A stretch of 64,000 nt of DNA from Catajapyx aquilonaris. Lineage: Eukaryota. The DNA lies in the NCBI GenBank assembly GCA_000934665.2, contig JYFJ02000353.1, forward strand, positions 1 through 64,000, given 5' to 3'. The notes below the pieces were generated by a model. It saw only the letters and a program-made list of their open reading frames with translations. It was not told the origin of the DNA and did no database searches. Positions 1,492 to 43,753 of the stretch are shown here, piece by piece. Position 1 is the stretch's first letter, and the number at the start of each line of letters is the position of its first letter. The translations under genes and the position numbers were made by a program.

Positions 1492-1855
1492 CTATCCACG
1501 AAACTTCTTCCTCAGTGACCTTCATGCTGGCGTCCTCCCTGACCTGGGGCAAGCACATGCCCATAAATCCCAGGCCCACGCCCATTCCCAATGCTGACAT
1601 GTTGTAAGTGGCAACCGCCAGAATTTGCATCCATACTGCTAGTGACGACGAGGGCGATGACTTTGAAGGTGCCGTCGGTACCGACGAATTCTTTTGATTT
1701 TTTATCTTGGGGGATTTTGATTTGGGTGTGTCCTTGGGGGATTTTGATTTAGGTGTGTCCTTGGGGGATTTTGATTTGGGTGGGTCCTTGGGGGATTTTG
1801 ATTTGGGTATGTCCTTGGCTTTGCCATTCATGCTGCTCTTCGGAGACGTCCCCAT
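1492..1855 (-). CDS. Sugar-porter (Tret1-like MFS) transporter paralog A, first coding exon only; the rest is presumably left of the window
   Basis: ATG at 1855, just inside an acceptor (TTTACAG|, exon starts 1865). Encodes an N-terminal tail plus TM1 (WMQILAVATYNMSALGMGVGLGFMGMCLPQVR...SWI) homologous to paralogs B-E. Phase-1 donor G|GTAGTT at 1492/1491, the same position as in the paralogs. No second exon seen in 1-1491. Confidence 0.8.
1706..1818 (-). repeat. Coding 27-bp tandem repeat (4 copies) encoding D(T/P/I)PKSKSPK
   Basis: Plus-strand unit cttgggggattttgatttgggtgtgtc repeated four times with few substitutions. Confidence 0.9.
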
Positions 1856-5333: not shown

Positions 5334-5464
5334 GTAAGTATATCTTCCATGACATACTATATAGCACCTGGCCATGTTGTTAAATTCCTAGTGGCGTTGT
5401 CGACTGATTGGCAATTTGCATTGGGTGAATGGATTCAGAGGATAGGCTAGGAAAGGAGGCTTCG

Positions 5465-6492
5465 ATGATGACGGTGTACGTGCTGGTAATGTTGGCGATG
5501 TTTCTGACTCTGATGTCTGCTGATGCTGGTAGACACGGTGCCAAGGGTGTCCTGGGTAAGAAACCTCCCGGAGAGGATGGTGATTTGCGACGTGTGCTGG
5601 GAATCATCCGCGCTGGTGCTAGGAAAAAGGATGGTCGGCGGTTGGATCCTCATGAAATCCTGAAAAAAATCCGTGGGAATTCCAGAGGCCACGAAGAAGT
5701 ACTAAGCATGCTCCTGGGCCTGCTGGGGTCCGGCGGCCACGATTCCAAAGAAACAGGTACCACTGCACTAACTTTACTTTTTATGCGCTAAGTATAGTGG
5801 GTTTGGCACGACTTATAACTAAGTTATAACACTGTAGATTTATTGGCGTTTGCATAAGGATTAGACGCTAATGAACACTAAGGTGCTGTGTCTGTCATTC
5901 CTATACGGCAATGTATGCGAAGAGTACCTGCATACGTCATTTTGATAAATTAATTAATTCAGGCAAAGTACTGCCAGAAACAATCTTTCTGTTTGCACAG
6001 GTAAGATGCTCTCCGCTGGGAAATTATAACATTAGATTTAAATATTTCTGATATGAATTGTTGTGCTGACATTGTGATTTATTTTGCAATAATTCCTCAT
6101 AATTAGTGATCATACTTAATTTGGTTTCAGAAATGATACATTATCTACTGGAAATTTTGAAACAATTTATGCAACATCACCAGGGCAGTGAAGTGCATCA
6201 TGATGATCATCATGACCATCACGATGGAGGTGGTGGTGACGAACACCATCATGAGGGTGGTGGTGATGATGGTCACCATCAAGATGATGATGGTGATCAT
6301 CATCATCACCATGAAGTTGTTAGTGATGATCATCATCATGAGGGTGGGGGTGGTGATGGTGGTGATGGTGGTAGTGATGGTGGTAGTGATGGTGGTGATG
6401 ACCAGGGCAGAATAAAAAAGACACCAAAATTCACCAAGAGGACACACCGAAAATCAACTCCAACTGTAAAGCGACATAAGCGCACTTTATAA
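5465..6492 (+). CDS. Secreted His/Asp/Gly-rich protein of unknown family, ~217 aa (coding exons 5465-5756, 6131-6492)
   Basis: Hydrophobic signal peptide MMTVYVLVMLAMFLTLMSADA. Phase-1 donor ACAG|GTACC at 5756 joins acceptor TTTCAG|AA at 6131 in frame (G+AA = Glu). Exon 2 encodes the HHDDHHDHHDGGGGDEHHHE... tract and a basic tail, then TAA. Confidence 0.75.
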
Positions 6493-7690: not shown

Positions 7691-9842
7691 TTACTTCTTG
7701 GACATCTCGTCTTCAATTTGGTCCAAAGTCTTGCCCTTGGTGTCAGGGATGCAAGGAAGTGCAAGAAACGTTCCAAAGGCCGCCACAAGTCCCATAAGTA
7801 AAAAGGTGCCATCAGATCCTATACCAGATAAGAGAGTTGGAAACGACACCTCAGCCACAAAGCTAAACGCCTCGTTTGCCACTCCAAGAGCTGCGCTGAG
7901 TGCTCCTCTAAAACGCAGTGGGAACACCTCTCCACCTGTAAAATAAGTGTAATGAGTGATACGCATCTGGATGAATTGAAAGCATTTCATACCCAAAACT
8001 CTGAGAGCTACGCTAAGTCCAGGAATGCACGCGGAGAGGTAAATCCAAACAGCGGCCACTGGAATCCAGGTGATGGTAGGCGCCCAGTAAATACCAGCTG
8101 CAGCCATCAGAAGAGAGGAGGACATGATGGCTCCAGAGACGCCAAGCAGGAGCCTCTGGCGCTGCATCCGGGCGACAAGAGGGCCTGGAAGTGCCAGGAG
8201 AAGCTGGAGGGCGCCTGTCAGAAGGGAGATGGTGTAGGCATCCCCAGGGAGACCCAGGGAGGTGAACAGATCAGAGGCGTAGGACACCACCACTACCGAT
8301 CCTGACAGCCTGTAGGCTGCCGTCGGAAGGAGGAGGATCAGGAGAGGACCAAGTGCTCGAGCGGACAAGAAGTCTTTCCATGATGCGGATGAACGTGGGC
8401 GATGTTGGTTCCGTGATGTCATGGATGCCACTGCTTCTTCCGCGCCCTGCCGACGAGTAAACCATAAAAGTTATGCAATAATAAACAGCTTTTAAACACT
8501 AATATATAACTGGCAGCAGAATAAAGCTGACTTGACCATCCCCCGAAGTAGTCAATTACACCAGCCGTATCTCAATGGACAGTTATTATATGGGTATTAT
8601 TGGCAAACAGCTGGTCAAAGGAAACCAACCTCATGAGTTCTTTGGAACCAGGTCTGTGCCTGAATAGCTTGAGGAATTTTTCCTCGCGAAGCCAGATGTG
8701 TGGGGCTGTCTGGAAGTGTCCACATGAGAGCAGAAAATATTAGGAGCGTGAGCACACCCACGGCGCAGACACCTCTCCATGGGAGGATGTATCCAAGCAC
8801 ATAAACCACCAAAATACCCAGTCGGTATGCCAGGATATCCACGGAGCTGAAGAAGCCTCTCAAGTGTACCGGCGCAACCTCGCATGTGTAAATCTGCAAA
8901 GTGCACGCAATGTAACGAATTGCACCATTTTTGAATAATTATATAGTAATAATGGAGATACAGTATTAGGAAAGTGGCTGTACCTGCCTGGGCCCTGTGT
9001 CTGCTCCCATGCCTATACCCATTAGGAACCTAGCTCCGAAGATGAAGTTGACATCCAATGAGAGTGCAGCCAATGCCCATCCCAGGAGAGCCACTACTCC
9101 GGAGACATAAATGACTGGCTTGCGACCCATCCTGTCAGTCAGCATCATTGCTATAAAACCTCCCAGCAGGGACCCAGCTTGAGGAAGTCCGACTGTGAGT
9201 TAAAGACAGTGTCAGAGATACGATGACCTGGCAATTAAGACGCTGCGTCAGCTGTCAGTTAAAGACAGGCATTATATGGTTGTATGAAGAGGGATAAGAA
9301 GTGAAGTGTTCCTACTTACCAATCCAGGCATCGTCGCTTATAGTAGACTGAATGTTCTTGTCGTGGCGTAGCTGGGCCAGGCACACTCCAGTGAAGCCTC
9401 CAGCATAACCGGCCATAAATGCCTCTATGTTTGTGACCGTGTTGACCCATACCTGTGCATACACAAACACTGAACGAGGCAGTAAATTACAGAGAAGGCA
9501 AACTGCAAAGATAGGACACTTTTTGTCTGCTTGGTACTGATTCAGTAGGCAAGCCAACGTGTGGTGCTGTACCAGGCACTGACTGATTCACTTGCCGCTC
9601 GAGTACACCATGCCTGGGACCTACAACAAAACATGCCTCTTGATGCAAGCCATCACCCGTGCAATTTATTACTAATGGTACACTCCCTTTTTAACTGTGA
9701 CTGTCGACAAGTATTGAATTGGAAACATCTGATGACGTACCTGAGGCCAGAAGGGAATGGGTTGTGTTGTAATGGTGTCTTGACTTTCATTGGTGACGGA
9801 TCTTTTGCGCCTTCCTAGGAGAGGCTGTGTTGGGCTATCCAT
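7691..9842 (-). CDS. Sugar-porter (Tret1/GLUT8-like MFS) transporter paralog B, 468 aa
   Basis: Exons 9741-9842, 9320-9452, 8984-9192, 8630-8893, 7993-8446, 7691-7935. All introns GT-AG with compatible phases; total 1407 nt. Motifs DRMGRK, ARFLMG, E..P..LRG, PDSP, GEVFPLRFRG, PDTKGKTL. Confidence 0.9.
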
Positions 9843-10426
9843 TTTCAATGAATACTAAGCCAAACTATATAGATCAGCAGCCTTGGTTTGCCATAATCTA
9901 ACGTGATATTACAACATCGCTGATAATAAGCAGTGATGATGTTTCGTCTGCAATCAGTACCTCCCACGAAAATCATAGTCATGGTGTTTGGCATTGCCGA
10001 AGGTCACAAGTGTTGCTCTGCAGAGTACCACCAGCAGGAATTTTACACTGTATATAATCAATTTGGCAGAAAATGGTAGTGAATTTGGACATAGTAAACT
10101 CTATAGCCACATAATGGTTGGGTGATGAAATTGGAAGGGATATACGTACATTTTATCGTCATATGGCATGATGTGCAAGGAAAAAATAAATAGAGGAAAT
10201 CGTTATCGCTAAAATAAAACCACGGAATGATTCATGCTCGAAGTCACATGCGTTATATTTAAAAGAATGAGGACGTGTTGGTCTGCATTTTTTCACGTTT
10301 AAAGCAAACAATACAACTATTAAAGTTATTTTGATATTCCATGTCCGCTTTTAATTTATTTTTAAACATTTGCATTTTCATTGCATACTCGTCTGCTTTG
10401 GCACTTTGCTCGTACAGTACAGTTCA

Positions 10427-13400
10427 TTACACCTTTGTGGTTTGCAAAGTCATAGGTGATAATTCCTTGTCAGCATCATCATGACTTATTTTCAAAGGCA
10501 GTCGTTGGGTAGTAAAACTTTCCTCGATTTCCTCTAGTGTTTTGCCTGACGTCTCAGGCGTTAGAAGGTAACCTAATGTGGTACCTCCCACGGCGACTCC
10601 GGAGAAAAGGTAAAATGCTCCTGACGGTGTCAATTCCCGGAGAAGCAAAGGAAAAGTCTGTGCTGAGAGGAAAGTGATGAGGTAGGATGCGCAAGTAAAT
10701 GCGTTGGATAAAACCCCTCTCAGTTGCAAAGGAAACAATTCGCCTCCCAGGATACGCAATACCACACTGTATCCAGGTATGGCGAAGCAGAGGTAAAGCC
10801 ACACTCCCACAAACGGCAGCCAAGGGACGGGTCCACCCTTTTTTGGACTGAAAAAGTAACAAAATTATTACTCATTTGTTCATTTATTTGCATTTGTTCT
10901 GTTGATTGACCCTTTCTGACTCACCTAACATGTAAATAAACTGCTGTAAGTAGAAGCCCTGCTCCCATTCCCAATCCAGAGATTAGAAGCACTTTTCTGT
11001 TTCGTAAGTAGAATACTGTAACCGCTCCTAAAACGGAAAGCAGCAGCTGAAATAGCCCAGTTAGTATCGTGGCCAGATATCGGTCTATAACGTCCTGGTT
11101 TCCAAAGGCCGGAAAGAGGTCTATTGCAAACGTGGTGATACCAATGGCACCAGAGAATCTGGCCGTGAAAGTCAGCAGGAACAGTATGGCAAATGGCTTA
11201 AAAGCACGGAGCGTCATGAAGTCTTTTGGTGTGAGTGACTGTCTTGTCTTTTTCGATTGGCGATTCACACTGCAACGTACGGATTCCAGCTCGGCTTGGA
11301 CACATCCATGACGCACTTTTTGTAAGGATTTTTCTGCCTCTATGATTCGATCGTGATGGATCAGATATCGCGGGCTTTCTGGCAGGTAAAACTTGACCCC
11401 AGTGGCAAAGGCTAGAGATACGGCACAACCCACCGCGCACACAACCCTCCAGTGAAATATGATTCCCAGCACGTACACCGCAAAAAGGCCGAGTTGAAAT
11501 CCGAAGAGGTTGATTGAAGAGAGAAGACCCCGTAGATGCACTTGAGCCAACTCTGCCACTAATACCTGAAAGTAACGAGTATCGCTCAAGAGCATGTCAG
11601 AAATGTTGAGTACCAACATTACCTGCCTGGTTCCAGTGGACGCACCCATTCCCATGCCCATAAGGAATCTGCTACAGAGCAGAAGTTGTACATGGAAAGA
11701 AAGAGCTGACCCCAACCATCCGAGGATTGAGAAGACAGCCGACAGCATGAGGGACCCTTTCCGTGCTATGCGTTCAGCAAGTGGAGCCATTATTAGACCT
11801 CCGGTAAGGCCTCCCAGAGCGGCAAGGCTGGCTACAGAGGAATTAAGATTGGGCTGAGTACAACTTTATCACCATGTAAACACAACACGGTCTTACCCAT
11901 TAAGGAAGATTCGCTTTCGGAGATGTGCAAGTCCTGGTCCTGTCGCAGTTGAGGGAGGCAAATCCCGGTGAATCCCATGCACATGCCAGTTGATATTGTG
12001 TCCAAATTTAGTACTAAATTAGCGCGAATCTTCGCCGGATTATGCAAAACAAGATGAATGCGATTAGTACTGATGATGCACCTTTTCTCATGTTTTTAAC
12101 AATACTCATTTTTGTCTCCGGAGCTGTTTCTGTTTGATTTTTTTTAAAATAGTGCCTGTCAGCAATGTAGACCTAGTGTGTATTTTCTGGCTGATAACAG
12201 ACAGATGCCATATGGTGTAATCTCTGTGTACAGGGACACTAGCGCTCGGTGGTTTATAATGGAAGCACATGAATTTGCATTTATACACGTTATATTTACA
12301 GGTGTGGCATTTCATTGAGTTTGTTGTGCATTTTGCAGACTGTTTTAGACAAATTATTTTTAACTTAAGCGTTTTTCAATATTATTATTATTATGGTACT
12401 ATAGGAGTATATAAACCACGCAGGTTATAGTTGGTTTTAATGTCAAGTGGCTAATTTTTTCACATAACGCATGGTCGTAATAATTACATATCTCGTAAGC
12501 AAAATTTTAACTCTAGGCAGTATGCAGTGTTCATCTTACTATCGACAAAAATTGCAGAAGTGGTTAATAATGCATGGTTTGCTCTCTACTTGCTCCCCGA
12601 TTCACCTTCATTGTCTCAGAGTGCTTTGATCACAAACATGAGCTGTTACAGCAGACAATTGATTGCAGAATACGCTGTGCGAGAGGACTCAGTGGACACA
12701 AGACAAACAATCACCAGGGAATTATAAGCCTGAGCTAACAACAAATCAAATGACAAATAAGTTGTACACGTTAGCTACTCTAACTGAATGCCCCAAAAGA
12801 ATATGGCCTTGCTACCTTCCTTCCCTTGCCAATATAACAAAGGTACAACTTTAAAGTGCGATCTTACGTGTCTTTCAGCATCAGAATATTTTAACTGTGC
12901 ACAAATATATTATGTGTCATGATGGTCATTCCGGCAATATAAAAACTAGTTTTCAGCCTGTGGTTAAAATAGTTTTAAATTGGCCAATTTTTTATTGCAT
13001 TCCCACAATTTTTTCAGGGTGGGGTTGGGCCCTTGTTCTATCGGGGCATTAAGTTATCATTACATGGAGTATTTTAAAATTTCGACATTGCATTGTTGAA
13101 CTTACATTCGGGTAATGCTGTGTAACCAAACCAGCTAATTAATTCACTGAATCGTCACTTGGTATTGCAAATTTATTAACTCGCCTGCAACTCGTACTTC
13201 ACCGTAGAAATCCGATAATCATTTTTGAATTGATCTTTTTTTGTATACCGACGCCTTCTCACACGAAATAGTCAATTTGGTGTTATTCATCAATACCCCA
13301 AAAAGCATGGCATATTTACTATTAGATTTTTCAGTGAGGTAGATTCAACTATTCAGTCATGTAATCAGTCAAAATATAAAACTAGTGATATTACTGTGTA

Positions 13401-13826
13401 CCTCAAGACTGGCGTCGACAGATATAGTCTGAGTCCGCCAATCAAATAATCGTTCACTCGATCCCTCGTAACACTTTAATCAGTACGATTAGTTTCAAAA
13501 GGCAAGTTGCTCAAGGACCTAAGAAGAGGAGAGTGTGTCATTACCGGCTTTACATGTATTGTTGTCAAATTGTTAAGCCTGTTGTGCCATTAAATGATCG
13601 GTTTATTAGAGCCTTGAGATAGAGCAATGAACTGGTTACAAGAGTGACACCGCGTACAGTTTAGCTCATATTGTTGGGGGGAAAATGACCAAGTCAATTA
13701 TTCTTTATAGCTAAATAGGTCGCGTTTACATACCTGTAGCCACAGCGAACTGCCGCAAGCTGTTGGACACACCTTAAACTTCGATTGAGCAGGAGTTGAG
13801 AGTCCTTCATCTTGATTTTCTTCCAT
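10427..13826 (-). CDS. Sugar-porter (Tret1-like MFS) transporter paralog C, 498 aa
   Basis: Exons 13734-13826 (MEENQ...SLWLQ, CAG|GTATGT), 11897-12029, 11623-11831, 10925-11565, 10427-10847; 1497 nt in frame. Motifs PESPRYL, GELFPLQLRG, PETSGKTLEEIE. The first exon is the least certain. Confidence 0.87.
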
Positions 13827-14847
13827 TGTGGTCAGCAACAAGAGTGCAAAAGGTGCGACAACATTGCTCCAGATCCTGCTCTAGTTACACTCGTTTCCTT
13901 CAAGCGTCTCGGTTGAGCAGACACGTACAAGTCGGCATGTCCACATGTAGCAGCAGCAGGTTGTTGGCCGTGCTAGTTCCTTCCTCCCATTGGGAATCTT
14001 CTGCGCGTGACGCAAGTGGTAATTGTTCCCTGACAAACCGGACTGGTGACAGCAGACGGGGACCCAATCGTAGGCCCACGTTGAACGAGGGAGGAAGCAG
14101 CGTGATAGCTTGGGTGTTATCCCTTCAAGAATGATAATGCTGCCTCGTAACAGCCATGCAGCACTCCCTAGTGACACACTTGCGGAGGATGCGTGCGGAC
14201 GACTTGCGTAGGCCTAAATGAATAGATAACGATGTGCACGTGTACGGTGTAAATGTACGCTTATACGTTGGGTGGGGTCACTTGAAAGCCTGTGTCAGAA
14301 TATTGGCATGCATTGTTTATAATAATTTTCAATAAATCGTGAAATTTATTGATGTCCTATATTAGGCCGCTGCTATCATAAAGGGCAAGACCCTCTGCCA
14401 TACAGGTCTGTCATTAACCTTATGTTACGAGGGACATGTAAAACCACAACAACAGCAACTCAAAGTCGTTATGAACGACCCTGCAAAGTAGCAAGCGGGT
14501 GATGAAAAATTATTGGCATCGAATAGTTTTTTATGCATTTTTATGCTTCAAATTTCAGACATAAATCATAATATAATATGATTATTTAAAGCATTTTTAT
14601 GCCGGAGATTACCTCTTCAATTTGGCTCCATACACAAACCATCATTTTATTTACATTACAAAGGCCAGGCGGCCTGAATAACAACTGAAACGAAAGTGTC
14701 TCTTCAAGCAGAAGTGCAGAATTTTGCGCACACGCGCATGCTAATATTTCCGATATCGACACTTCAATAAACTTAAGCGTGAGCTTCACGGAAGTCCCAA
14801 AAATGCAAGTTATATATTTCACACAAAGTGTATCACTTGGTCATTTA

Positions 14848-17800
14848 CTAAGCGCTACTTTCTGACATTCCTCCCGCGTCTTCATCAGCATTTTCTTCTT
14901 CGGGAATCGAGGAGGATTCACTCATTGTCCTGATTGGCCTGATAAACCTGGATGGCTTTGGAGGAAGAGGAGGTGGTGATGGGGATGAGGGAATCGAAGG
15001 TGGTGGGTAGGAAGGTATGGACGCCGGAGAAGGAGGAATCGAAGGTGGGGGACAAGAAGGTATCGAAGCTGGAGACGGAGGAATGGGAGGATGCTGGGCT
15101 GGACCAGTTGAATAATCATTGGCATCGACAGGCGTGCTGGGCCTTTGTAAGATGCCGCCACTCTCGTCAGACCGGTTTTTACCCAGAAGACCCTCCTCAA
15201 TTTCACTCAGACTTTTTCCCATGGTTTCAGGAACCATGAAGTATGAAAACATCGCTCCGAATAAGGACACGATTGCAAATACGCAGAGAATTCCGGCCGT
15301 TCCCATGATTGCCTTCATACTCGAGTACAAGTAGAGCGATATGAACACAAATAAAAAGTCCATGGCTGCCACCACGGTGGCCCCCGTGGCCCGAATCCTC
15401 AGAGGGAACAACTCAGCTCTCAGGAGCAGATGGAGCATTAGGAATCCAGGTGTTAAGAAAAGCAGGTAGAACCACAGTCCAACCACAAATATGGGGTTCT
15501 CTGGCGATCCATTTGTGTAGAGGAAGGCCGACATGGAGCCCAGGGTGAGGGCCATCCCTACTCCAGAAGTGACTGCCAGAAACCTCCTAGGCAGAAAGTG
15601 CACCAGAAGTAATCCTAGTGCGGACAGAGCCAGTTGCACCAGTCCGGCCACTAGTGTCGCAGTGTACTTGTCCAGCGCTCCTCCAAACGAGTGGAAAATG
15701 TCGGTAGCGTATGCCACTATCACGGCTGCTCCTGGGTGTTACAAGATACAGCAAGTTAGTACCGGTACCTGAACATATATCTCATACAGTAACCTGTTCG
15801 AGGATGACATCAGAACTGGTGACTTTACCTGCAAACTCACAGACGAAGCTGAATGTGGCGAGAATCAGAAGGGATTTGACAACAGGCCATGATTTGAGAT
15901 GCACGAGATGCTTTGAAGATTTCCAGTGGATTGTGGTAGGTCCAGGAAACCGTGTCTGCGACCTCTCCAAGGCCTCCACCTCCTCTTGCATGGACCTCCG
16001 ATCATAATACTGTCCTCGGAATTTCCGGAAGGCGTCTTCGGCCTCCTTGTACAGCCCTCGTGACAGCAGGGAAGCTGGACTGTCCGGGATGACGAATATA
16101 AGGACCATCAAAGCCATGGGTGGTACTGAACTCAGGCCAGCCACAATGCGCCAGGACAGCAACAGACCCAACAGGAACACAATTGATACTCCCAGGAACT
16201 GACCCACCACTGCTGAGCAGGTCAGGATTGCCCTCAACCTGATCTCTGACAGTTCGCTGACGTATGCCTCGAGATCAAAAGAAATACTGTAATGATTGGC
16301 CTTTTCTTTATGAAACCTAGCTGATTTTTTAAAAAAAAACCTTACCAGCTGCGTGCCTGCTTGGCAACCAGCGCCCATTCCCAGGATGAATCTGGATGTC
16401 TGAAGAGAGGCAAGGTTGAGGGAAGCAGTGGCTATCACCCATCCAATCAAAAACAGAGCACTGCTGATCAGAAGGCTTTTCCTCCGACCTAGGGCATCAG
16501 CCATTGGGGCCATAAGTACTGCTCCTGTGACACCTCCCGCTCCGAATAAGCTGGCTGCAAAAAAGTGCGAATTATTAATTGCCAAATATTAAATGCGGAC
16601 ATGGCTGTTTTGTGAGGAACACATAAATGGTGGCAGCGTTTAAAGTATAGTGTTGAGTGGCTCATATGAAATGTGCATTTTTAAAGGGTTGGTCGTTACA
16701 ACTTACAATCCAATTAAAAGTGAGGAAACCTCACTTACGACCCTTCTCATAGAAAATAATTGTCACTTACCCAGCCACTCTAAGAAAATTTTGAAATAAT
16801 GTTTTACGTCAACATTGTATATATCCTGTTCATATTTTCCTGCACTGTGATTCAGTATATAGGCCTAATACTACGACATTACCCATCCACGACTCATCAT
16901 CTTCTGTCAGTTCGATTATGGTGTCCTGTCGAAGATGTGGGATACATATTCCCGTGAATCCCAGGGCCATTCCGTAACACAGAGGAGCCAAGTCCGAAGC
17001 AACGGTACACCATGCCTAAGAAATGGCACAATATATTAACTTATTTACACGAATAAAAAAGTAGTGCATAATAAAAACTGACGTTAACTTTAAATATGAC
17101 AAATCAAGAACATTTACACTGTTTATGATGTAATTATGGTAAGTTGTATCATTGGTTACTTAGCTAACTGCACCTAAACAATCCCTATGTAGTGTACTGA
17201 AGACGACACATTCAGTTAAACCAGTTTCGTTGTCACCTCCTCATAAATTCGATACATGTTAGTGTCTGTATTGAAAAGTAATATTGTCATGTGCATCATT
17301 TCACTGCACTGTACTTCCGTATACTTTTCGTTATCATCACTTGGTGGTCTGCCACATTCATCGGTTACGACATGCATCTCAAAAATATTGGCGATTAAGA
17401 CGTTATCGCATGTTTAATTAATGTTGCCGATATAAGTACCTGCCTCTATGATGCATTTTTGCAGTATCTTGATGTAATACTTTCTATAAGCGAAAAGGAC
17501 ATGTTAAATCAAACGTTAATAAGTTATGGCATGATGTTGTGTGCTTTTTTCGCTTGTTTTTGGAAGTAAAAAATCATAATGCATAACTTAACCCTCCCTC
17601 CGAAAAGACACCGGAGGTTTGGGAATCGTCATGGTACAGTACTGTTTTAACCAATCATAAATGTGACATGATAACTGCGAAACTTCCGCTGAAACATTTG
17701 GATAGACCCAGCAATTTTTTTTACTGTTTCTTATCTCAGTGGTCGTTGCTGAGCCTAAGAATTGTGTACACTAATAGATAAAAAGTTTGTCGATGGTGAT

Positions 17801-18034
17801 GTCACATGGGCCATTATTCTGCATGTGAAATTCTTCGGATATTTTTCAATAATGGAGAAAAAAGTGGCGTTTCATGCCTTTGTCTAGGTGATGGCGTCCC
17901 TTTTGCAGGATAAGATAACGGCGCGGCGGTGTCAGAAGTGTCGAATAAAGCTTATACGTGAAGCTCACCTGATATTTCCATGATGGTTTCCTTTGCGCCC
18001 GGATGGGCAGGTGGATCGCAGGAGTGGGTGCCAT
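14848..18034 (-). CDS. Sugar-porter (Tret1-like MFS) transporter paralog D with Pro-rich C-terminal tail, 576 aa
   Basis: Exons 17969-18034 (MAPTP...SWKYQ, CAG|GTGAG), 16883-17015, 16346-16554, 15829-16267, 14848-15731; 1731 nt in frame. Motifs DALGRR, PDSP, AELFPLRIR, PETMGKSL. Confidence 0.87.
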
Positions 18035-18873
18035 GAATATCAACTAGGCCTAGAAAACTTGCCGATGCCCATCCTTTTTTTGGCTGTGAGTACTGTTAGT
18101 ACTTCAGTGCAAGACCTTCTCGGTCTAACTGATGAGTAATCAGGAAGCAGGTAGGGGTGGAGTGTGCAAGTGGATTGGGGGTTAGTCTACCTTGCACACC
18201 ATGCTGATAACAAAATATTTCAAGCTTGCTCTTCATATCTTTGCCTTGGAAACTTGCGTAGGTACAGTCGATGGTCACATCATTCACATACAGACAGCGG
18301 CATGCAGTGTTCCATGGTTATAGTTCCCGTAATAGTCAGTGATTTTTAGCGCTAAGCTGATTATACTTTAAGCAGTAACTTTGAAACAGTTGCTTTTAGA
18401 GGTTGTCAATAAATTAACTGCTAATATTTTCATATTATTAAAAAAAAACTAGCAGAGTATAGAGTCGGCAGACCCGAAATGTACCATCTTTATAATAAGC
18501 AGCTTCGAATCTAAGAAACATTAATTATGCAGTATTTGGCTACATACGAGATTCAATTACTGGAACACTGTAATACCCATGGTAATACCTATAACTTAAT
18601 AAACAAATAGGCATAATTAGACAACATGAATTATGGCATTTTATTAAAAACCATACAATCGGTAAGTGTTTGATAAATAATGAATCGAAATAGTAATAAC
18701 AATAATAATATTGCAGTCATTTATGCTAACCTAATAATATATCTGTATAGGTACTGAAACCTGCAACTTAGTAACCTCCTTGGCGCGATACTAGTGAGAT
18801 CTGGCAGTCTATCATCTGTTACCTCTCTTACCCGTACAGCCATACTACAGTAGAACTTTTCTACCGTGTAGAC

Positions 18874-19045
18874 CAGGGGTTCTTAACCCTTTCGGGCCTC
18901 GGCGCCCCTTTGAAGACAGTTGATCCTTGTCGCACCCCCTATACCAGGGGTGATTGATTAAGTTCATAGTTAGACTAAGTCCAGAGGTGTACCTTGCTCG
19001 CACCCCTTAGGGATGCGGGCGGGAATCCCAGATTAAGAACCGCTG
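18874..19045. mobile_element. Non-autonomous hAT-type DNA transposon (MITE), 172 bp
   Basis: TIRs CAGGGGTTCTTAA.. / ..TTAAGAACCGCTG, flanked by a perfect 8-bp TSD GTGTAGAC (18866-18873, 19046-19053). Confidence 0.85.
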
Positions 19046-19549
19046 GTGTAGACACTGTAGATGAGTATGTCCATACCAGTTTGTAGTCTATGCTTAGTAT
19101 AGTACTGTACTATGCTTTAATGACGATTTTTGATCCCACGCATATTTCAGCGCTCGTCTAAGGTCTCATGTCAGTTGCGAAATACTTTTTTGGTCGTTCT
19201 TGACAGGTGGTTCAGTTTTGAGAAATAGAGGTTTTCACACACATTATAGCTAGAAGGCATAGCGCATAGAACTGCCTACGGTATATCAAAATTGATGTCC
19301 AGCCATGGTCCCAAAATAATATACGGGCCGCTATCATGAAGTAAAAACAAGTCTCATATATTGACCTATAGCAGGAGATCGACTGGAAGTGGCGTAGTAC
19401 CTCTTCTACAGAACACAAACACGACAGGTTGCACACTGATATTCTAGCAAAGAGAATTTACGAGCACTGACAGTATGTAGTGCTCGTAATGCTGATATCA
19501 CACTCTGGCAAGAAATTGAAGTAAAGCTTATGCGTTAGGTATGTGAGTT

Positions 19550-22500
19550 TCAGCTAGTGCCATTGGCTCTTGGCTTGTGGACTCCATTTTGATAACCATT
19601 TGGTGTAGAAACGTGAACCTCCTCATCCAATGTGGTCATAGCAGGATTGACCTGACCCTGCGGCTGCGAAGATGGCTTGGCAAATCCATCTTCGATCTGG
19701 TTTAGGCTCTTGCCCTTGGTCTCCGGCAGGAAGAACCCGGCAAAGGCGGTGCCAAAGACCGTGACTGTCCCATAAATCCAGTAGACTCCATGAGGCGTCA
19801 ACGCATCGCTCATCAGCGGGTAGCTCTTGACCACAGCAAAGTACAGGCAATACTGGAAGCACGCCGTCAGGCAGCTCAGAGTACTCCTGGTCCTCATAGG
19901 AAACAGCTCTCCAAGAAGCACCCACGGAATGGTAAGGAAGCCAGGAATCACAAAGACCTGGTAGGACCATACGGCGACGATGGGCACCCATCCAGCTGGA
20001 AGGCTACCATCCGCCTCCTTCTGCTCCATGTGTCCGTAGAGAGCCGCAGTGTACAGAGACGCGGCCATTCCCAACCCGGACACGATCAACATAGGCTTCT
20101 TCTTCACCTTTCGGATGAGGAAGCTGCCCCCCAAGGGTAAGGCCACGCGCAGGACGCCGGAGATGATGGTGGCGGTGCCTTCGTCGATTCCACTATTGGG
20201 CTGTCTGAAGATATCAGCGGCGTAGTTGGTGATGGTTGGGGAACCGGAGAACTTGTGGGTGAAGAAGAGCACGGACAGGATGCACAAGGGCCACATGGAC
20301 GATCTGGAGAACAGCAGGGCCAAGTGGTTCTTGGCCTTTTCCCATCCCTGAAATTGACGAAAAAGGAGATAGTAGGAACAGTTGTCAACAATGATTAGAA
20401 GTATCGATGAAAGGTTTGAGACCCACCGTTTTGTGGCTGTCCTCATCCTCTTCCTGCTCCCTCTGCTTCTTCAAGATGTCCTCCATCTCAGTCGTGATGT
20501 CGTAATTCTGTCCGCGGAGCTTTCGAAGGGCGTCTTCGGCTTCTTCTATTCTGCCTCTCGACGCCAACCAGGCCGGGGTGTCGGGCAAGAAGAAGAGCCC
20601 CACGATGAAGATGACGGGGATGAGGGCCCCCACTCCGCACACGACTCTCCATGGAAGAATTGCGCCCATGGCATACACCAACAGGATGCCCAGGTTGGAG
20701 CTGAAGGATGTCGTTGATGAGAGGGCTCCTCGATACTTCACAGACAGGCTCTCGGACAAGTACACCTGAGGAGTTCAATATTCTCATTAGAACTTTGGCC
20801 AACTCTCTAGATTTTAAAATAATTGACACCGTGCTGTAAAATTAATACTATAGTCGTCAAGTGATCGTGCAAGGGCTATATTACAACATTATATACCTTA
20901 GCACAAGGTTCACTTGGCATAATCGATGTCGCTATTCAAAGAAAAGGCTAGTGTTATCGCACTACTATAGAATCATATAATTTACGTAAAAACCAGCAGT
21001 GAGTATAGTTAAAAAATATTATCTTTTAAACGTGGCATGAAATCGATACGTCAATAGCGTTAGGATATCAGGTTAAAGTATTTCCTCATGACCGCCAAGA
21101 GTTGCACAAGAAGTCAAAACCTTGCTGATCTTTACTGCCACAGATATTCGCAATATTGAGAATAAAAAAATATGGCTTGATTTCTGAATATTTTATTCAA
21201 ATGACACATGCATGATAAGGAAATAGTTGTCTGTTCACATACTACAGGCAAACCAACCAGCTGTACCAAACCAAACTCAAGTGTCTGATTGCATGTCATT
21301 CTGTATTTTGTTCGATATGTATAATATTCTCCATTGGAATAAGAACTTGTGCCAGCTGACAATCCAGCAGTTACCTAATTTATGTGCAAAGAATGTGCAA
21401 GAGATTGCGGATCCAACACCTGTGAGCACTCTTCTCTATTCCGAGGCATAAGGCAGGTTCCACCCACAGAAATAACTGACAGTGAATGTAATAAGAAGCT
21501 CGGCAAGACGCTAGTTGTCATGCCATGAGTATCATACGTGGATGGTTCGTATATAGCTCTAAACGGGAACATATATGAGAGTGTAATAACTAAAGTATCG
21601 GCCAAAAGGTATGACAGTTTTCTTAGATGTTGGATCCTTGCCAATTTCTAAGACAAAATTTCTCTGCAGTAGATTTTTGAATTATTTTTGGTTTAATTAG
21701 ACTGATTAGAAAGATTTTTATTTGGTATCCAAGTGAATTATGTGGAATAACCTGATCTTGAGAGTGCTGGGGGTACTTTGAGTTATTGATGGTGACATAA
21801 CCCACAGGTTAATGGTTAATCTATGTAACATAATGGACGAAACCGAAATTAATATATCCTGGCTGTTAAGGAAACGGTTAGGAAACAAAACATCCTATGA
21901 TGAGTTGGGAGGCTCTGGGATGCATTATCAGATTTGCAGATGTGGGCTGTGTCCAAATTGAATGAAGTTATATCTTGCTTTTTTCAAGTGCAAGCATAAA
22001 ATAATATTCAAGGAAAATGATCTAACTGATTCCATAGCCGCAACTATTAGACCCAATGCTGTACACATGTATCGGCGGTGGTGAGTGGGCGGGTTATTGT
22101 AACATTATAAAAACCCTGTAGAAAAACAGCAAGTAGATAAAAAATTTTGTTGGAATGAATGCATATAACATCTGCTCATGTTAAATTAAACTCTGGAATA
22201 TGTACAGAGTCTCTTATATTAGTATGCTCCTACGAATGGAGCAGGTACAGATAGCCATTCATATGTATTAGTATCAACTCATTTGCATATTTCTGTCATA
22301 TCACATCTCAAAAGTGAATGCAAGTCTTACTGTTGATGAATCTGCTGCTGTACAGGTAAGTTACTTACCTGCAGATAACATGCCGTAGCCTATACACAAG
22401 TGAACGTAACACTCACCTGTTTGGGAGCCACTTGCATCCCCATGGCTATTCCTTGCAGAACTCGGGCAATGTACAAGATGGTGAGATTAGGGGCCAAGCC

Positions 22501-24343
22501 TGCACCTGCCCAGCCCACCACCATAGGTAGCGAGCCTAAAAACATGATTCCTTTCCTGCCCCACCGATCCGAGATGATCACAGCCAGTAAGCATCCTGCT
22601 ATGGCCCCTAATGACGCTATACTTGCTGCGAAGAAAGAAAACCAGATTCAAATATTTATTTCAAAGTGAAGAATAATGGGACTAATATTAGTGTATGCAG
22701 GCATAGCAAGGGTCTTTGTATGAACCGTGCTTATAATAGGACGAGACAGATTTGATAGTTGAATCTGGGCAAGGGACATTGGACGATATAAATTATCATG
22801 TAAACGAGTGCAAGGCTGCACGTGAAATTAGCACGCTTTTACACGAATTAAGTACGTGCCGCGTGCCCTGATGAGCCCAATATTGACAAGACGGACGGAC
22901 AGAAGCGGTTTGTATCCTGGACCGATAATATTTTGGAGTTTAACCGCTAACTACAAGTGTACACAGAGATTAGCGTAATTATTAGAGGTTCTATATTGAT
23001 AAAAGTTCAGTTCCTTCTGTAGCACTCAGGTGATAAATTACACTGATATCGGAGAAGTGCCCAGCACGTACTGAGGTAATTCAGCTTATTTAAAGAAAGA
23101 ACTTGGTTATTACCCCCATCCTATACGCAAAAAATGTGCACCTGCTAGTTATTGATAACATCTTAGTAAAAAAGTATCGCCAGTACAATAGAAATACGCA
23201 ATTTTATGGACAGAAAATTACGTAAACGAGAAATTCGACAGTTAGTAATTTATAGCTATTGAAACAGTCAACATCAATGTACACTGCTAGTTTCTTATAC
23301 TTAAAACTTAGTCAGATATTAACGGGGTTATTCCAGACCATGTAGGTCCTTAAACCCCGGGCCCCACATAGGGCCTATATCATCACTCTAAGTCCCTTTC
23401 ATCGTGGTCCGCACAGGGGCGGACCACCCGTTCGCTTCCGAATCGAACCCAAGCCGTCATAGGGTCGAGACTCGACCATTGGGACGACACCCAGAGGAGC
23501 CGCCCGTCCCACGATCGAGTCCCGAACCCGTAAGGTCCGGAACTCGCCCCAATCCCGTCCGACATTCCTCTCGACTTCCGCCTGGTCACCCAGGCATACT
23601 ATTACAAACTCTTACCGATCCACGAACCGTCTTCTTTGGTGACTTGTAATTCCGGGTCTTTTCGAATATGCGGAAGACACATTCCTGTGAAACCACCAAC
23701 CATTCCAGCTGACACTGGAGATAAGTCGATGATCACGGTTAGGAGAAACTGCAAAGATATAACCCAAATGGTAATGGTTTTCACTAATTTATTCGGATAA
23801 CGAATTCATTGTCAGGCCAAATTGCAGGTATACGACTGAGCACTGCCCTTGTCCTTGGACTTGGGTCCAATTTTAGATCCACCACACTGCGGACTACAGG
23901 TTTCGCGCCAAGATTCCGAATAGACATTGTGCAACCTATGTTCAACCCAGAAGACAGCAATATAACTCTAACTTTACATCACGCATATGCTACAGACCCA
24001 TCAGTAAAAACCTTCACTGGCCTGCTAGGTCTGGACACCGCATTATCACGGGGGTGTCATAAAGGTTATCATTGGAATAAATGTTATCATAACATGGTGG
24101 TTTAGAAAAAAAGGCTATATAGGTGTTATTACTGCACTGTTGCTTATGAAGGTGTCAAGAATACACAAATTATTATCTAACCTGTGGCCAAAATTTGGCC
24201 TGGACTGGTTCAGGCTGGACCCTCGGAGGTAGCTGAATGGCTCCATTCAGATCTGAAGAACTCTTCCTTCCGACCCCTATCAACAAGGGTGTCTTCGGAG
24301 TCTTTGGGGGTAGCCCCTGAGATTGATGCTTCAAGTCCGGCAT
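19550..24343 (-). CDS. Sugar-porter (Tret1-like MFS) transporter paralog E, 546 aa
   Basis: Exons 24182-24343 (MPDLK...KFWPQ), 23616-23748, 22417-22625, 20427-20765, 19550-20347; 1641 nt in frame. Motifs DRWGRK, YLSE...YRG, PDTPAWL, IPWVLLGELFP, PETKGKSL. Confidence 0.9.
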
Positions 24344-31890: not shown

Positions 31891-32378
31891 CTACGGATCT
31901 TCCCTCTTTGGTGGCTTGATATTCCGGATGTACTCAATCTCAGCCTTGGTGTCCTTGACCTTCTTGATGAATGAGGCCACGTACTCTTTTGGATCAAAAG
32001 CTTCTGCCTGCTTGATTTGTGCCACCAATTCTCCCTGGAACGCCTTTTCCTTCTTCAGTTCTCGCCTCTGGTTTATCTTTATCAACACAAATTTCATCTT
32101 CTTGCGGAGCTTCCTCAACTTGTGCTTCTTCATCTTTTTCCGCCTAATAACCACCAGGCGAGCTGCATGCTTCTCCACGACAGGATTTGGCGATGGTTGA
32201 GGTGTAGGAGTGGCAGGAACAATAGAGAGGGTGGGAAGGCGTATTTTTAAATTTGGGACCAGGGGCTGCGTTACTGGGGGCAATGCAGGGATAACAGTTG
32301 GTGGGGCAAGTGAGGGTAAGATACATGGAGAGCGATGGTAATGGAAGCTGACATGGGTAGATGCAGCTCTTGCCAGAC
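31891..32378 (-). CDS. AURKAIP1: Mitochondrial small-subunit ribosomal protein mS38 (AURKAIP1/COX24 family), 3' exon; 5' exon(s) not located
   Basis: Family signature AARLVVIRRKKMKKHKLRKLRKKMKF...QRRELKKEKAFQ..L...IKQAEAFDPKEYV. Phase-1 acceptor TTACAG|GT at 32378; TAG stop at 31891. Confidence 0.85.
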
Positions 32379-35300
32379 CTGTAATAACACAAAAGTATTT
32401 GGTGGGTGAACCTTCTTCCAATATTTTCACCTGAAACTGCTCTGTTGTCAATCATTTCGATGAATTGACAGGAGGGCAGCAAGAAAATTCCGCAAGTATT
32501 CAATTTCATGCAGGAACTGCGTTGGGGCATTCAAAGAATAATGAAAATGAATTTATTAGTGGCAGCTTTAAAATGTTCCTGACCGGAATTCTATCTCGCA
32601 AAATATTGATAAGGAAATGTTTCTGCATGAACATCCTGATATATGCATCTTCCCTAACCACTGGCTCCTCATTCTTGGCAACATGCAATTTTCTGCTCAA
32701 CTTCCATCTGGAGTATTTTTTTTAAAAAAAAGAGACTTTCATGGTCATATGTTATCTTACATATAGTTATACTTTTCTCTCTTGTCTCTCTCTCCTACAG
32801 AGGTGACTCCTTGGGGTCAAGACGAAGTTGTACAGTACTAGATGAATCCAGTGCTAACACTATAACCAGATATGATTTCATAAAATTTAATTGCCAAATG
32901 TTATCTCTCACATCTGAACAACTAGGCACATGACAAAATGATTTGACTTGTGCCACAAGGGCAAACTTTTTGTTACCATGATCAGAAAGTTACAAAAGTC
33001 ACTCTTTTGAAGGTGAAAGAAAATAATTTGAAATGAAGGACAAGTATAAGACTTGTGAAAATTTGTGTAACTGAGGCCCTTCTGCAATAGCCTACTTTTG
33101 AAATTAAATACAGTAATAATTGGCATTGGCTGGGATGCATTTGTACAGTGTTGGACATAAATCGAGGCATATTGCTAGCGACATTTTCCAAAGTAGCTTT
33201 GGAAAATGTCGCTGGCAGTATGCCTCGATTCATGTCCAACACTGTACCAACAGTGCAAAAAGAACTGTCCCAGTAATCCTGACGTGTGGGCTGGCCGCTC
33301 GACACACACCATGTAAGTTACATGGTGTGTGTTGAGCGGGCAGCACACACATCAGGATGACTGGGACAATTCTTTTTGAACTAATGATACCCTACTGGAC
33401 AAAACTACTACAGGTTACAAGCAGTGTCAAATGCGCACCAAGTGGAATTGTGCATTCCTCACGCTCACAGAAGCAGGGTGCCAGGTTTGTTCATCCACCC
33501 GCACCCTCATTTGGCACTGTTGTAACCTCTGCAGTAGTTCTTTCCAGCAGTGCATTTAGGAAAATTCACAAAATACGAGTCTTGTAAGTGCTAATGCAAG
33601 ACATGAATAAAACGACATGCCTCCTGCTTTTATTACGAGTCCCATACCCCACCTGGGAATTATCTTATAATCAGGGAAAATTTCAACCTAGGACAGGTAT
33701 TGGCATAAAAGGTAAATGGTTATTTGTAAACCTGAAAATGATAGTTTGAAATCTTGAAGCAGGACATCATTACAAGGGCAAGTTTAAAATTTCTCTTACA
33801 CAAGATTCTTCAAATCATGCAGGTAGTGGTATTGTATAGGAAGCTGCTAGATTTTTGTTTGCACATAATGACTGCTCAAAATAATGGCAGGGTTGTTAGA
33901 AACTCTGGGTCAAAAGTCAGGGTTGAACACAGGGTCAAGTTAAATACATATACTGCACATAATGAAAAACAAGTGCCCCTTCTCAACTTGGAGTCAACCC
34001 AGCCCCCTGTCACTTCCTCCTTAGCCATATAGATATGGTACTTTAATTCCTGTGTCAAGTCTGCGGAAGCAAAGAAAGATCGAGCCCCATGGCAGACTCA
34101 CCTGCTACCTACCACCCGAGTTGCACCTAGATCAAGATGGTGGCTTAGTGAACGATGGGGCAGAGAAATTACCCTACGGGGCTAAGTCAACCTATACTCT
34201 GTGTTTGATAAGCCATTATGTACCTAGACCTTAAGAATGGTATGCACACTTTGGGAGTTATATTATACACATCAAAAGATTCTGGTCAACCAGGTGATTT
34301 AGGTTTGTACAGTGTGGTCGACACTTGTCCATTTCAGGCTGCTGTTTTCCACAGTAAGGGCTGGCTCTGTGAATTCAAATTAAGGAGAACATATCCAATT
34401 AGGTTGGATTAATTGGAAATGTGTCCTAATTTGTGTTCATACAACTGCCTCTCTGTGGCAAGCATACCTGCAACATGCTAATATATCCATGGACATCCAT
34501 CTATGTAAATCTGAATGCCAGAGATTTGAAATCCTCTGTCAGTTTTAACATTCCGATATGGCTTGTTCGGGCGGTGCAACCATGCAGTCAATATCAGATT
34601 TGCCATTTAAATTACGACAACCACAGTGTTTCTTTCATTTGCAACACCACAGCTGGACAAACATTTTGGTTTGAAGCTATTTCTCATCGCAGCATAATGA
34701 CCACATGGGACACCCACCCTGCTTCTGTCCGGCAAGGAATGCCGATGCAGGCAGCCTCATTAGGGACAGGGCTGCTCTCAGCATGGTGTGGCTCAGTAGC
34801 TCCTGCCTGCCTGCCTGCAACGTACATGGGGGATTAGTCAAAATGCCAAACATGGATGGAAATCCCAGCTTCAACCTTCGTTTTCTTTCTTCTCACGCCT
34901 TCCCAGCTGCACTGGTCGCCTCCATTGCTTCTTCAAACAAACGATCTCTAAGTAGGCAACTTTGTGATACTATCCTGCTGGCGGTGCTCGAACTGCCCGC
35001 TAGATGGACACCTCCTGCAGTGGTTGGCTACAGTGGACACTTGGCGCGACTCATGACGCGACGATGGTGACACTTCTCAAGTAATACTACGGCATTCAAC
35101 TATACACTTGATGTGAAATGAAGGCACTCATGCCTTCCATGCACCAATGTTCATTGGATACCCAGCATTCAATGCCCAGTGCTCAGTGCAAATGTACAGA
35201 TATCACGGACATTTCATATAATTTTGTCTTATGCTCAATTTTAGGGTCATTTTAAATGCAAAATTGCAATGTGTGATTGCGGTGGACATATTAGTTGTAG

Positions 35301-41300: not shown

Positions 41301-43753
41301 AATATACGGCCTTCAACACATGTAGAGCCAGAAAGCAATGAACTTGCGACTCCCTAATTTTCAGTAACTGTTCAGCCAAATTGTAGTCGTGAAAACGTGT
41401 GGAATTCTCCAGACAGTGAAATTTAAGGGGGTTGCCATCAGTGTACGAAAAAAAATATTGAAGTAGGTGAGGAGCAGGTGGGAATGGAGTAGACTCTCAC
41501 TATTGTTTGTGCCCCACACAAAGACCACGTTTGGTTTCCGGTCACCTGCTTCAACTAACAAGCGGACCTAGACCTGCTTCGATAGCCTGAAGTCTGTGTA
41601 CTATCAAGTACGATCGATGAACTATCGCAACTCGAGGCTATCAATTCAGCGAAACTTGACACCGCACCAGAGACGCGTCTATCATGATAAAGGTTATCCA
41701 AGTTCAGGATGTGTAATCATCAGGGCACACCCTGTAGTCGTATCTGCACTCAAATAGGTCCAAATACCGGCCTGTTGTTGGCAGGAGCGGAAGGAATAGG
41801 AAACAGGCGAGAAAGACTGTTCCTGTGAGATGGCAATCGGCGTAGTTATTTGCAAGTTGGGACAAGGAAGGCGTGCAAGGAAGAATAACCAAGCAGCCGA
41901 CGCTTCTCATCAAATTCCGCTCGCCTTTCCGGTTTACGAGCTTGTTTCTCTCGCTGCAAAAAAAAAAAAGTCTCCAATTCCAGGTGAAGAAGTCCGGTTG
42001 AAGGACTCGGCTGCAACAGGAGCTCCTATTTCCTTGAGAGAGCTTTTTGTGTTGCGTCCTGCAGGAGGTCGGATTACTTGTAAAACGGGCCCCATCTCGT
42101 GGGATACGTCCAGGAAATTGATAATGTGTAATACCGTGGCATTGAGTAAGGAGACCTTGGGGGAGCATCAATCAGCCTTTCATTACACCCACAACAATGA
42201 CAGTCATCTGTATATAGGGGGGGCTTGTATGCGATATGAAATCATTTTCGTTTACCGCAAACATTTTTGTTGTCGCTATTTTTAGTGGCGTGGCCTATTT
42301 TTCCGGTGTAGTGGAAATACCTGCATTGTTTAATTTAAGCGTTGTGTAGCCCACCCGGTGAGGCAAGACTCGATGGAGAGCCGATTATGTCACTGTTTAG
42401 TTGTCGGCACCAAGGTTCTTGTGGAAGGTCGCGCTCAGTGATGTCATCGCTGTAATAAACACTCGGTTGCACCTCACTGCTGATGTTTGGGGACATTGCA
42501 CTGGCCAACATACAGGGTGATGCAGTCCCAAAGAAATTAACAGATGTTGGTGTCCGCCCGCGCTTTTATTTCCGGACACCAACCCCGTGTACTAATTGCC
42601 CGGGACTCCACCCTTTGGAATGGGACAAGTCGGAACCAAACCGAATTTCTGGTGGCGACACGAGCGTTTCCGCGAACCGCGCTGAAATAGTGATAAGCGC
42701 GATTGTGGCCAGCCCTGAAGCAGATAGCACTTAAATCTTGATGAGGGCGGTATCGCGTAGGTTGATCATTTCCGGGTTGGCCTCGTCCCGTTTAGCTGCT
42801 ACATCCATTTGTCGCGGCGATTATTAAGCAGGATTCTCTCTACACGAACATATGGCTGATTTCTGGTTTCCGTTGGTTTACCCGCAAGGTGGATCGGTTT
42901 AGAGAATAAATCAGTCCGGGCTTGGGGGGGTTTGATTGTATTTGACGTTCAACTGGCTAGGGAGGATAGAAAACGTTTGCGGGGATCTTGGCAGGATTTG
43001 GGCTGTTGGGGTGGGGCCAACTATGTGTCCGGATGCTGCAGACAACACAGGGCCTTGGACTTGCGGCATGATTCCTGGTTCTACTTCAAACATCAACAAA
43101 TTGGCCTTCGTCGCATGGAACTCAATTTCATTGGTCATCCCGGAATGATGTACGGTCAGATGAGGTGTAATCAGGTGTAAACTGAAGGAGGAACCTGTTG
43201 GGCACTAATGCAGATGAAGGCGCGTGCCATCCCCTCTCGACCATAGTACTTGTCCCCCACTGGTCTGGACGCCATCAAAGCCAATCAGACGTGGCTAATT
43301 GAAACCGTCGGCCTTAATTAAGACGAGAATGGATCAATGAATGGCCCGACCTCTCTCCTCCACCCTTCCGATTTTCTCTCCCTAAATCTAATTGCCCTTT
43401 ACGACAGGCCAATTTGAAGGGGCTCCAGGGGACCATGTCGTGCTGCCTAGAGCTGTACTGTATATTAATGCAGCCTCCTGTCTGGGCATATAGACACTAA
43501 TCTAGCACATTCTCACCCGCCGATAACTGGAACAAATCTACGAAACGTGTAACGGGTGCGGAAGACATGTGGGTTTATTTCTGGAAGTTGGCCGCCTGCC
43601 TCGTGCGGATGTATTGCCCCCTAAAGCTAACACCACGTGTCAGGTATAGCCATTGGTATATAGTAACAAGCTTTGTCTTATTTCAGGTGTTGGGTATGGA
43701 GGAGGCTAGGGTGTTGCGGTGACGGCATGCGGAAGAGGCTGTAGAAGAGCAAG

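Follow-up and report, generated by a model that had tools for sequence, protein, structure and literature searches.

The window analysed here is the first 64,000 nucleotides of contig JYFJ02000353.1 (C137 in our numbering) of Catajapyx aquilonaris, whose genome assembly (GCA_000934665.2) measures 286 Mb. Between positions 7691 and 24343 its minus strand carries four complete sugar-porter genes, B, C, D and E, which follow one another head to tail and have charged residues at positions that bind glucose in GLUT1. Their gene models were compared with X1, a single public run that covers part of the window and is not on record as RNA.

7691–9842, minus strand: gene B, 468 amino acids; exons 9842–9741, 9452–9320, 9192–8984, 8893–8630, 8446–7993 and 7935–7691; introns 3, 4 and 5 bridged by X1 contigs
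10427–13826, minus strand: gene C, 498 amino acids; exons 13826–13734 (predicted), 12029–11897, 11831–11623, 11565–10925 and 10847–10427; intron 4 bridged by X1
14848–18034, minus strand: gene D, 576 amino acids, with a Pro-rich C-terminal tail; exons 18034–17969 (predicted), 17015–16883, 16554–16346, 16267–15829 and 15731–14848; open frame and GT..AG introns, the splicing being predicted from the sequence only
19550–24343, minus strand: gene E, 546 amino acids; exons 24343–24182, 23748–23616, 22625–22417, 20765–20427 and 20347–19550; all four introns bridged by X1

All four models are open from start to stop with no internal stop codon, as an earlier note on this DNA had claimed, and their 17 introns are all of the GT..AG type. 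The first exons of C and D were picked by analogy (that of C with B, D and E), and the first exon of C was not seen joined. The Pfam family Sugar_tr (PF00083) was matched by 9/9 tested coding pieces of B–E (14 pieces were submitted in all). X1 contigs skip 8/17 introns (three of B, one of C, all four of E), each with the length modelled; no joint was seen in X1 for D, for introns 1–3 of C or for introns 1–2 of B, an absence that counts neither for nor against splicing. Where X1 is listed as differing from the window, the sites all lie outside the modelled exons, and the codons of Tyr282/Arg283 of B and Arg388 of C (GLUT1 numbering) are each inside an X1 contig without alternative letters. We rejected the in-frame introns of B and C as coding sequence; that of B is spliced out in X1. 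Pseudogene status was rejected on the open frames together with saturated synonymous divergence, and duplication by assembly on pairwise identities of only 29–39% (38.5% for B versus C).

Pocket positions were assigned by alignment. The register is held by the ungapped anchors G286, E393 and R400 and by the spacing from 388 to 411, which is 23 in B, C, D and E. Gene E aligns without gaps to XylE around Q288/Q289/N294, N325, W392 and Q415, which anchor GLUT1 positions 282, 283, 288, 317, 388 and 411; this alignment, a check proposed in the earlier note, supports the residue calls. Position numbers in transmembrane helices (TM) 1, 4 and 5 were counted from anchor residues. The side-chain directions of the pocket residues we infer from the alignment.

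8309–8314, minus strand: Tyr282 and Arg283 of B (TM7)
8000–8002, minus strand: Arg388 of B (TM10), replacing Trp
8822–8839, minus strand: Asp160 and Arg165 of B (TM5), Gln161 being lost
8987–9001, minus strand: Asp136 and Arg140 of B (TM4)
7871–7876, minus strand: Asn411 and Glu412 of B (TM11)
11158–11163, minus strand: Ala282 and Arg283 of C (TM7)
10754–10756, minus strand: Arg388 of C (TM10), its codon differing from that of B at two positions
11626–11628, minus strand: Arg140 of C (TM4)
15836–15841, minus strand: Cys282 and Glu283 of D (TM7)
15358–15429, minus strand: Leu388 (15429–15427) and Asp411 (15360–15358) of D
20252–20257, minus strand: His282 and Lys283 of E (TM7)
20147–20149, minus strand: Arg317 of E (TM8), ancestral in its family branch

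Positions 282/283 read Y/R, A/R, C/E and H/K in B, C, D and E, and position 288 reads V, I, A and P, which matches the TM7 strings YRLSGSV (B), ARFSGAI (C), CEFAGAA (D) and HKFSGSP (E) reported earlier. The change of the TM10 Trp to Arg in B and C and to Leu in D, with Trp in E only, was confirmed at 388 (R, R, L, W), as were the TM11 residues N, S, D and Q at 411, where the Glu reported beside the Asn of B falls at 412. Further charges, beyond those noted before, are found at 140 (R, R, Q and K in B, C, D and E), at D136, D160 and R165 of B, and at R317 of E; position 317 is Gln in B, C and D, as in canonical paralogs. Gln161, Gln282, Gln283 and Asn288 are gone from all four genes. Only one or two of the six core sugar ligands are retained per gene, and none of B–E has the ligand set of hexose carriers (Q161, Q282, Q283, N288, N317, W388, N411). 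All four have a same-sign charge pair among the six core sites, basic in B, C and E and acidic in D. An acidic residue in TM1, also claimed for all four, is present, but at two positions (22 in B and C, 20 in D and E), and Asp20 is common to clade members with a near-normal pocket, so this acid is partly ancestral. The proton-coupling site itself (XylE D27, GLUT1 N29) is Ala, Cys, Ala and Val in B, C, D and E. The TM1 acid as a XylE-type proton site was rejected for its wrong position (20/22, not 29).

We assembled 29 further sugar-porter genes from this genome (a lower bound), 27 of which span all six core sites. None of these 27 has a same-sign charge pair at the core sites, and seven keep six of six core ligands. 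Such a pair was found in 10/228 complete database domains (three with two basic, seven with two acidic residues), and at most one core ligand is kept in 20/228; these domains were picked by likeness to the clade of B–E and are not independent. Among the fetched domains, Arg388 occurs in 1/371 (P0323), Arg or Lys283 in 6/364, Glu283 in 24/364 and Asp411 in 7/366. Doubled charges and Arg388 are rare in arthropod Tret1-like proteins; single pocket charges are ordinary. Only four pocket columns pass a 50% conservation threshold, of which B, C and D keep none and E one (0/4 and 1/4), versus 72–90 of the 118 other conserved columns, near the values for other paralogs. The loss is therefore concentrated in the pocket.

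P0323, which has Arg388 with Glu283, sits on an unrelated branch and represents an independent origin of Trp-to-Arg. A conserved insect sugar porter (C24:68080–70440; P0012) has Arg283 and Lys30 without Arg126, a separate old basic pocket.

The scaffold around these sites is largely kept. B–E retain E146, R153, E393, R400, the A-motif of loop 2–3 (with Ala in place of Gly in C) and both sugar-porter (SP) motifs, after TM6 and TM12, although Asp replaces Glu in three of the N-domain motifs and, for B, in the C-domain motif as well; motif definition and positions were taken from PMC7898563. The earlier statement that the gating motifs are largely intact thus holds for these elements but not for the second A-motif, in loop 8–9, which is degenerate. 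The family profile (Sugar porter family, TC 2.A.1.1, PF00083) was found and, for the C-terminal half of B, the major facilitator superfamily fold. This half of B, folded with a 38-row alignment and with the in-frame intron left in, gave a predicted local distance difference test score (pLDDT) of 85.6, with TM7 and TM10 broken as in GLUTs; confidence drops to about 61 around R388, next to the intron. Its best matches are GLUT9, GLUT4 and GLUT3 (TM-score 0.70–0.77 for the top nine). A single-sequence fold of the C long frame reached a pLDDT of only 48.9.

For all six pairs of B–E, synonymous differences are saturated at 0.73–0.81 per site versus 0.43–0.49 for non-synonymous differences; the sole finite pair estimate is dN 0.74 and dS 2.87. 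Given saturated synonymous sites and open frames, the duplications that gave B–E are old and the genes are under purifying selection. Orthologs of these four genes were not found by a search with the C long frame (best match 36%), by profile searches (in which B–D score 207–218 bits and the list reached down to 141) or by a search with P0183, and 0/304 candidates were confirmed in a metagenome scan with a B exon.

A FastTree phylogeny of 85 rows, which used hand-picked database proteins and left out rows under 300 amino acids and eight C905 genes of a near-identical clade, placed B–E in a clade of 12 rows (11 from this genome and P0183) nested among insect subfamilies with Arg317. In an IQ-TREE analysis of 20 rows, support was 100/99 for this clade, 95/97 for D+B+C and 100/98 for B+C, with E placed only loosely in a six-gene subclade. 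B–E did not group with canonical Tret1: a gene on C635 joins P0244 and P0255, which have canonical pockets, and B–E lie on another branch. The nearest outside relatives are the Arg317 subfamilies of insects (P0206 from Anabrus, P0194 from Frankliniella, P0122 from Periplaneta; 28–36% identity), which like B–E have lost N288 and E329 but, unlike them, keep Trp388 and mostly Gln282. Within the clade, most other members keep Gln283 and all readable ones keep Trp388. Hence Arg283, Arg388, Arg140 and the acid at 22 have a single origin in the ancestor of B and C and were then kept. The Arg codons at 283 and 388 differ between B and C; at an average retention near 0.4, the chance of retaining three Arg is about 0.06, which is supportive, not decisive. 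The 283 codons of B and C (Arg) and of D (Glu) are each one change from the Lys codon of E, which makes a charge reversal in D possible.

GLUT1, XylE and canonical Tret1 share with B–E the fold, the first A-motif, the SP motifs, E146, R153, E393 and R400, and differ from them in that four or five of six core ligands are replaced in B–E and the second A-motif is degenerate. In porters of the GLUT1 type the TM7 Asn is essential, the TM10 Trp usually so, and the surroundings of the cavity are free of salt bridges (PMC8154325). That review also calls it unclear how many annotated sugar porters really carry sugars, and two aphid gut porters failed in hexose complementation (PMC4132908). The closest functional precedent is the flea beetle Phyllotreta armoraciae, which has a species-specific clade of 21 sugar porters, the PaGTRs and their relatives, most similar to trehalose transporters; 13 of them import glucosinolates and two iridoid glucosides, and PaGTR1 is proton-driven (PMC8113468). 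We read their residues by eye from the supplement sequences, the first 400 letters of each. Lys282 is present in 12/13 PaGTRs versus 1/8 clade members without glucosinolate activity; 317 is Lys or Arg in 21/21 porters and Lys in 13/13 PaGTRs; and 388, readable in 10/13 PaGTRs, is never Trp and never Arg. The two carriers of neutral iridoids have Gln282 and a basic 317. The main text of PMC8113468 does not discuss pocket residues (0 matches for residues, docking or XylE), nor does it discuss the correlation of Lys282 with glucosinolate uptake. A search of the open-licence literature showed nothing published on charges in the pockets of insect Tret1-like proteins; subscription papers and further supplements, including the alignment file of PMC8113468, may bear on this.

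Like the PaGTRs, B–E belong to a lineage-specific Tret1-like expansion; in PaGTRs, Q282, Q283, N288, N317 and W388 are replaced and the cavity has two basic residues. The PaGTR cargo is an anionic glucoside. Two basic core residues with loss of N288, a feature that is our own reading of the supplement and not a definition by the authors of PMC8113468, occur by analogy in B, C and E, partly at other positions: R283 with R388 in B and C and K283 with R317 in E, unlike K282 with K317 in PaGTRs. Gene D has no PaGTR counterpart. A second comparison is Gn_Str_cluster of Bombyx mori, a tandem, lineage-specific cluster of sugar transporters with genetic and expression evidence for flavonoid uptake (PMC9937047); the likeness lies in the tandem arrangement and in a non-sugar role, which for B–E is predicted. 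GLUT9 (SLC2A9) has the same fold, carries an anion, and binds urate with Tyr at 282, as in B, with Asn at 288 and Glu at 317 (PMC11169512). Unlike B–E it keeps Gln283 and Asn288 and has Glu317, and no Arg or Lys is among its urate contacts listed there.

We lean towards the explanation that B–E are working carriers of the sugar-porter family with a central site rebuilt for non-hexose solutes. The earlier note had proposed carriers or sensors of this kind: the genes are intact, selected, spliced (B, C and E) and rebuilt in the pocket, and the substrate part is a prediction. In this view a single arthropod Tret1-like sugar porter was duplicated in tandem long ago. Its copies B–E preserved the rocker-switch scaffold of 12 helices, together with two salt-bridge pairs (E146/R400 and R153/E393) between the bundles on the cytoplasmic side, and the rebuilt site would accept solutes other than free hexose or trehalose. 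Very probably they do not handle hexose the GLUT1 way. For C (R283, R388) and E (K283, R317) we give even odds to an anionic cargo whose negative group is bound by the basic pair, much as glucosinolates are probably bound by the two Lys of PaGTRs; the likeliest candidates would be sugar acids and glycosides that are sulfated, phosphorylated or uronic. For B the same is plausible with somewhat less assurance, part of its charge being paired internally. That the cargo of D is of another kind, perhaps an amine or an amino sugar, is doubtful though conceivable. The proposal of anion transport by B and C through two Arg is thus favoured by a basic pair like that of proven insect anion carriers, but E is equally basic and the net charge of B is unclear; D does have the acidic pocket described, but its cation cargo is a weak proposal, undercut by GLUT9 and by a conserved insect subfamily with Glu283 (24/364). 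The K282/K317 pair of PaGTRs is the best support for an anionic cargo in C, E and B. It is also why the system is not new in kind: the idea of diversified transport under a Tret1 label has already been demonstrated in flea beetle and silkworm. The TM1 acid (20/22) would, from helix pseudo-symmetry, pair with Arg/Lys140 of TM4 rather than with cargo. By analogy, the likely place of action would be the epithelium of gut or excretory organs, where conjugates from the diet or from metabolism would be salvaged or excreted.

Several observations weigh against this explanation. The Lys of PaGTRs sits at 282, the basic residue here at 283, and the correlation of Lys282 with uptake goes back to a single evolutionary origin. 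It also has exceptions: PaMFS8 shows no significant glucosinolate uptake in spite of K282, and PaGTR2 is a glucosinolate carrier that lacks it (PMC8113468). GLUT9 moves an anion past Glu317 with no basic contact listed, so pocket charge is a poor guide to cargo charge, and specificity of sugar porters is poorly predicted by binding-site sequence (PMC8154325). At least one charged core residue is found in 120/228 database domains and Arg317 in 88/371 fetched domains. In E, R317 is ancestral and a basic 317 also occurs in neutral-iridoid carriers, which leaves one derived basic residue only. In B the four Arg are matched by as many acids, at 22, 136, 160 and 412. E329 and G332 of the second A-motif are lost in all four genes, and R333, 98% conserved among the database domains, has changed to Q in B, N in C and K in E. 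This degeneracy is clade-wide, seen in most members including those with a near-normal pocket, and the A-motif is described as present in one or both loops (PMC8154325).

Of the other explanations, the one that survives best, though we think it improbable, is that the charges cancel each other or serve proton coupling and that the cargo is a neutral non-hexose solute such as a polyol, neutral glycoside or oligosaccharide. The equal numbers of acids and Arg in B, the co-occurrence of the acid at 20/22 with a basic 140 in B, C and E, the pairing of Glu283 with Arg317 in a conserved insect subfamily, the basic 317 of neutral-iridoid carriers and the proton-driven PaGTR1 (PMC8113468) all fit it. 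The charges do not cancel in the remaining genes: a single acid stands against three Arg in C and against three basic residues in E, and D has three acids without any Arg at these sites.

There is little chance that B–E are still glucose or trehalose carriers with unusual kinetics. Gln317 in B, C and D is as in canonical paralogs, E has Trp388 and an XylE-like Gln411, and the TM10 Trp is not always essential (PMC8154325), but one or two of six core ligands are left, four ligand residues are missing from every copy, and the genome already has paralogs with all six. Equally small is the chance that some of the copies have given up cycling for a role as sensor or scaffold. The degenerate second A-motif, the long Pro-rich tail of D and the polar character in B and C of the inner hydrophobic gate of GLUT1 (W388, P141, I404; this gate and the glucose contacts of GLUT1 are taken from PMC12171873) would suit such a role; against it, the A-motif change extends to clade members with near-normal pockets, and the inter-bundle pairs and both SP motifs are kept. 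Drift of the charges under relaxed selection on redundant copies, in spite of the long branches of B and D (0.92 and 1.03) and the fewest conserved scaffold columns in B (72/118), is very improbable: splicing is seen, the multi-exon frames have stayed open although synonymous sites are saturated, B and C have both held on to three shared Arg, and what was lost lies mostly in the pocket.

The four genes are probably part of a larger array, whose nearest member, gene A, lies at the contig edge.

1492–1855, minus strand: 5' exon of gene A, which contains TM1 and is cut off by the contig start, with a probable continuation on contig C3911

The exon of A joins a 5'-less gene at the end of C3911 in phase and without a stop, with no sequence overlap between the two. 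Joined, they would probably give an array of at least eight genes. C3911, C11713 and C283 carry at least seven more genes of the same clade as B–E, and broken gene ends at the contig edges are complementary, which suggests that C137, C3911, C11713 and C283 are pieces of a single array with at least 12 genes. Distinct from it is another expansion (C905:1700–52800 and C980:55700–62500), which comprises 13 or more sugar porters; their pockets are near-canonical, and R400 is mostly changed to Met or Ile. An 8-residue repeat rich in Lys, Ser and Pro, with Ser-Pro sites, occurs four to five times in the N-terminus of gene A (window 1705–1810, minus strand), and in the long tail of D (window 14848–15190) Pro/Ser-rich units recur before an acidic stretch. 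The space between A and B is occupied by a probable gene of two exons (window 5429–6492, plus strand) with a hydrophobic, signal-like start and several dibasic sites followed by a His/Asp/Gly-rich frame; its first part has no Pfam or Atlas match, and an X1 contig spans 6529–7248, just behind it. Ordinary neighbours are a frame with a COX24_C domain (window 31891–32451, minus strand) and a TMEM198-like gene (43745–49479, plus strand).

On sequence alone, B–E are a further case of lineage-specific expansion in which the pocket has diverged. Among arthropod Tret1-like genes, most of which are orphans, they offer natural, selected charges at the best-studied glucose-binding positions. From the PaGTR comparison we propose a simple rule, that a second basic TM7 residue marks anion carriers. 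A bolder reading, which we regard as unlikely, would make B and C organic-anion carriers through Arg283 and Arg388 at the site of the inner-gate Trp, E one through its PaGTR-like pair, and D charge-reversed at 283 for a cation, with the TM1–TM4 ion pair as a relocated proton switch; Arg388 with Arg283 may then be a route to anion transport not described so far. If true, one tandem array would span anions and cations on a glucose-carrier scaffold, and a second basic TM7 residue would be a general sequence marker of anion carriers among orphan arthropod Tret1-like proteins.

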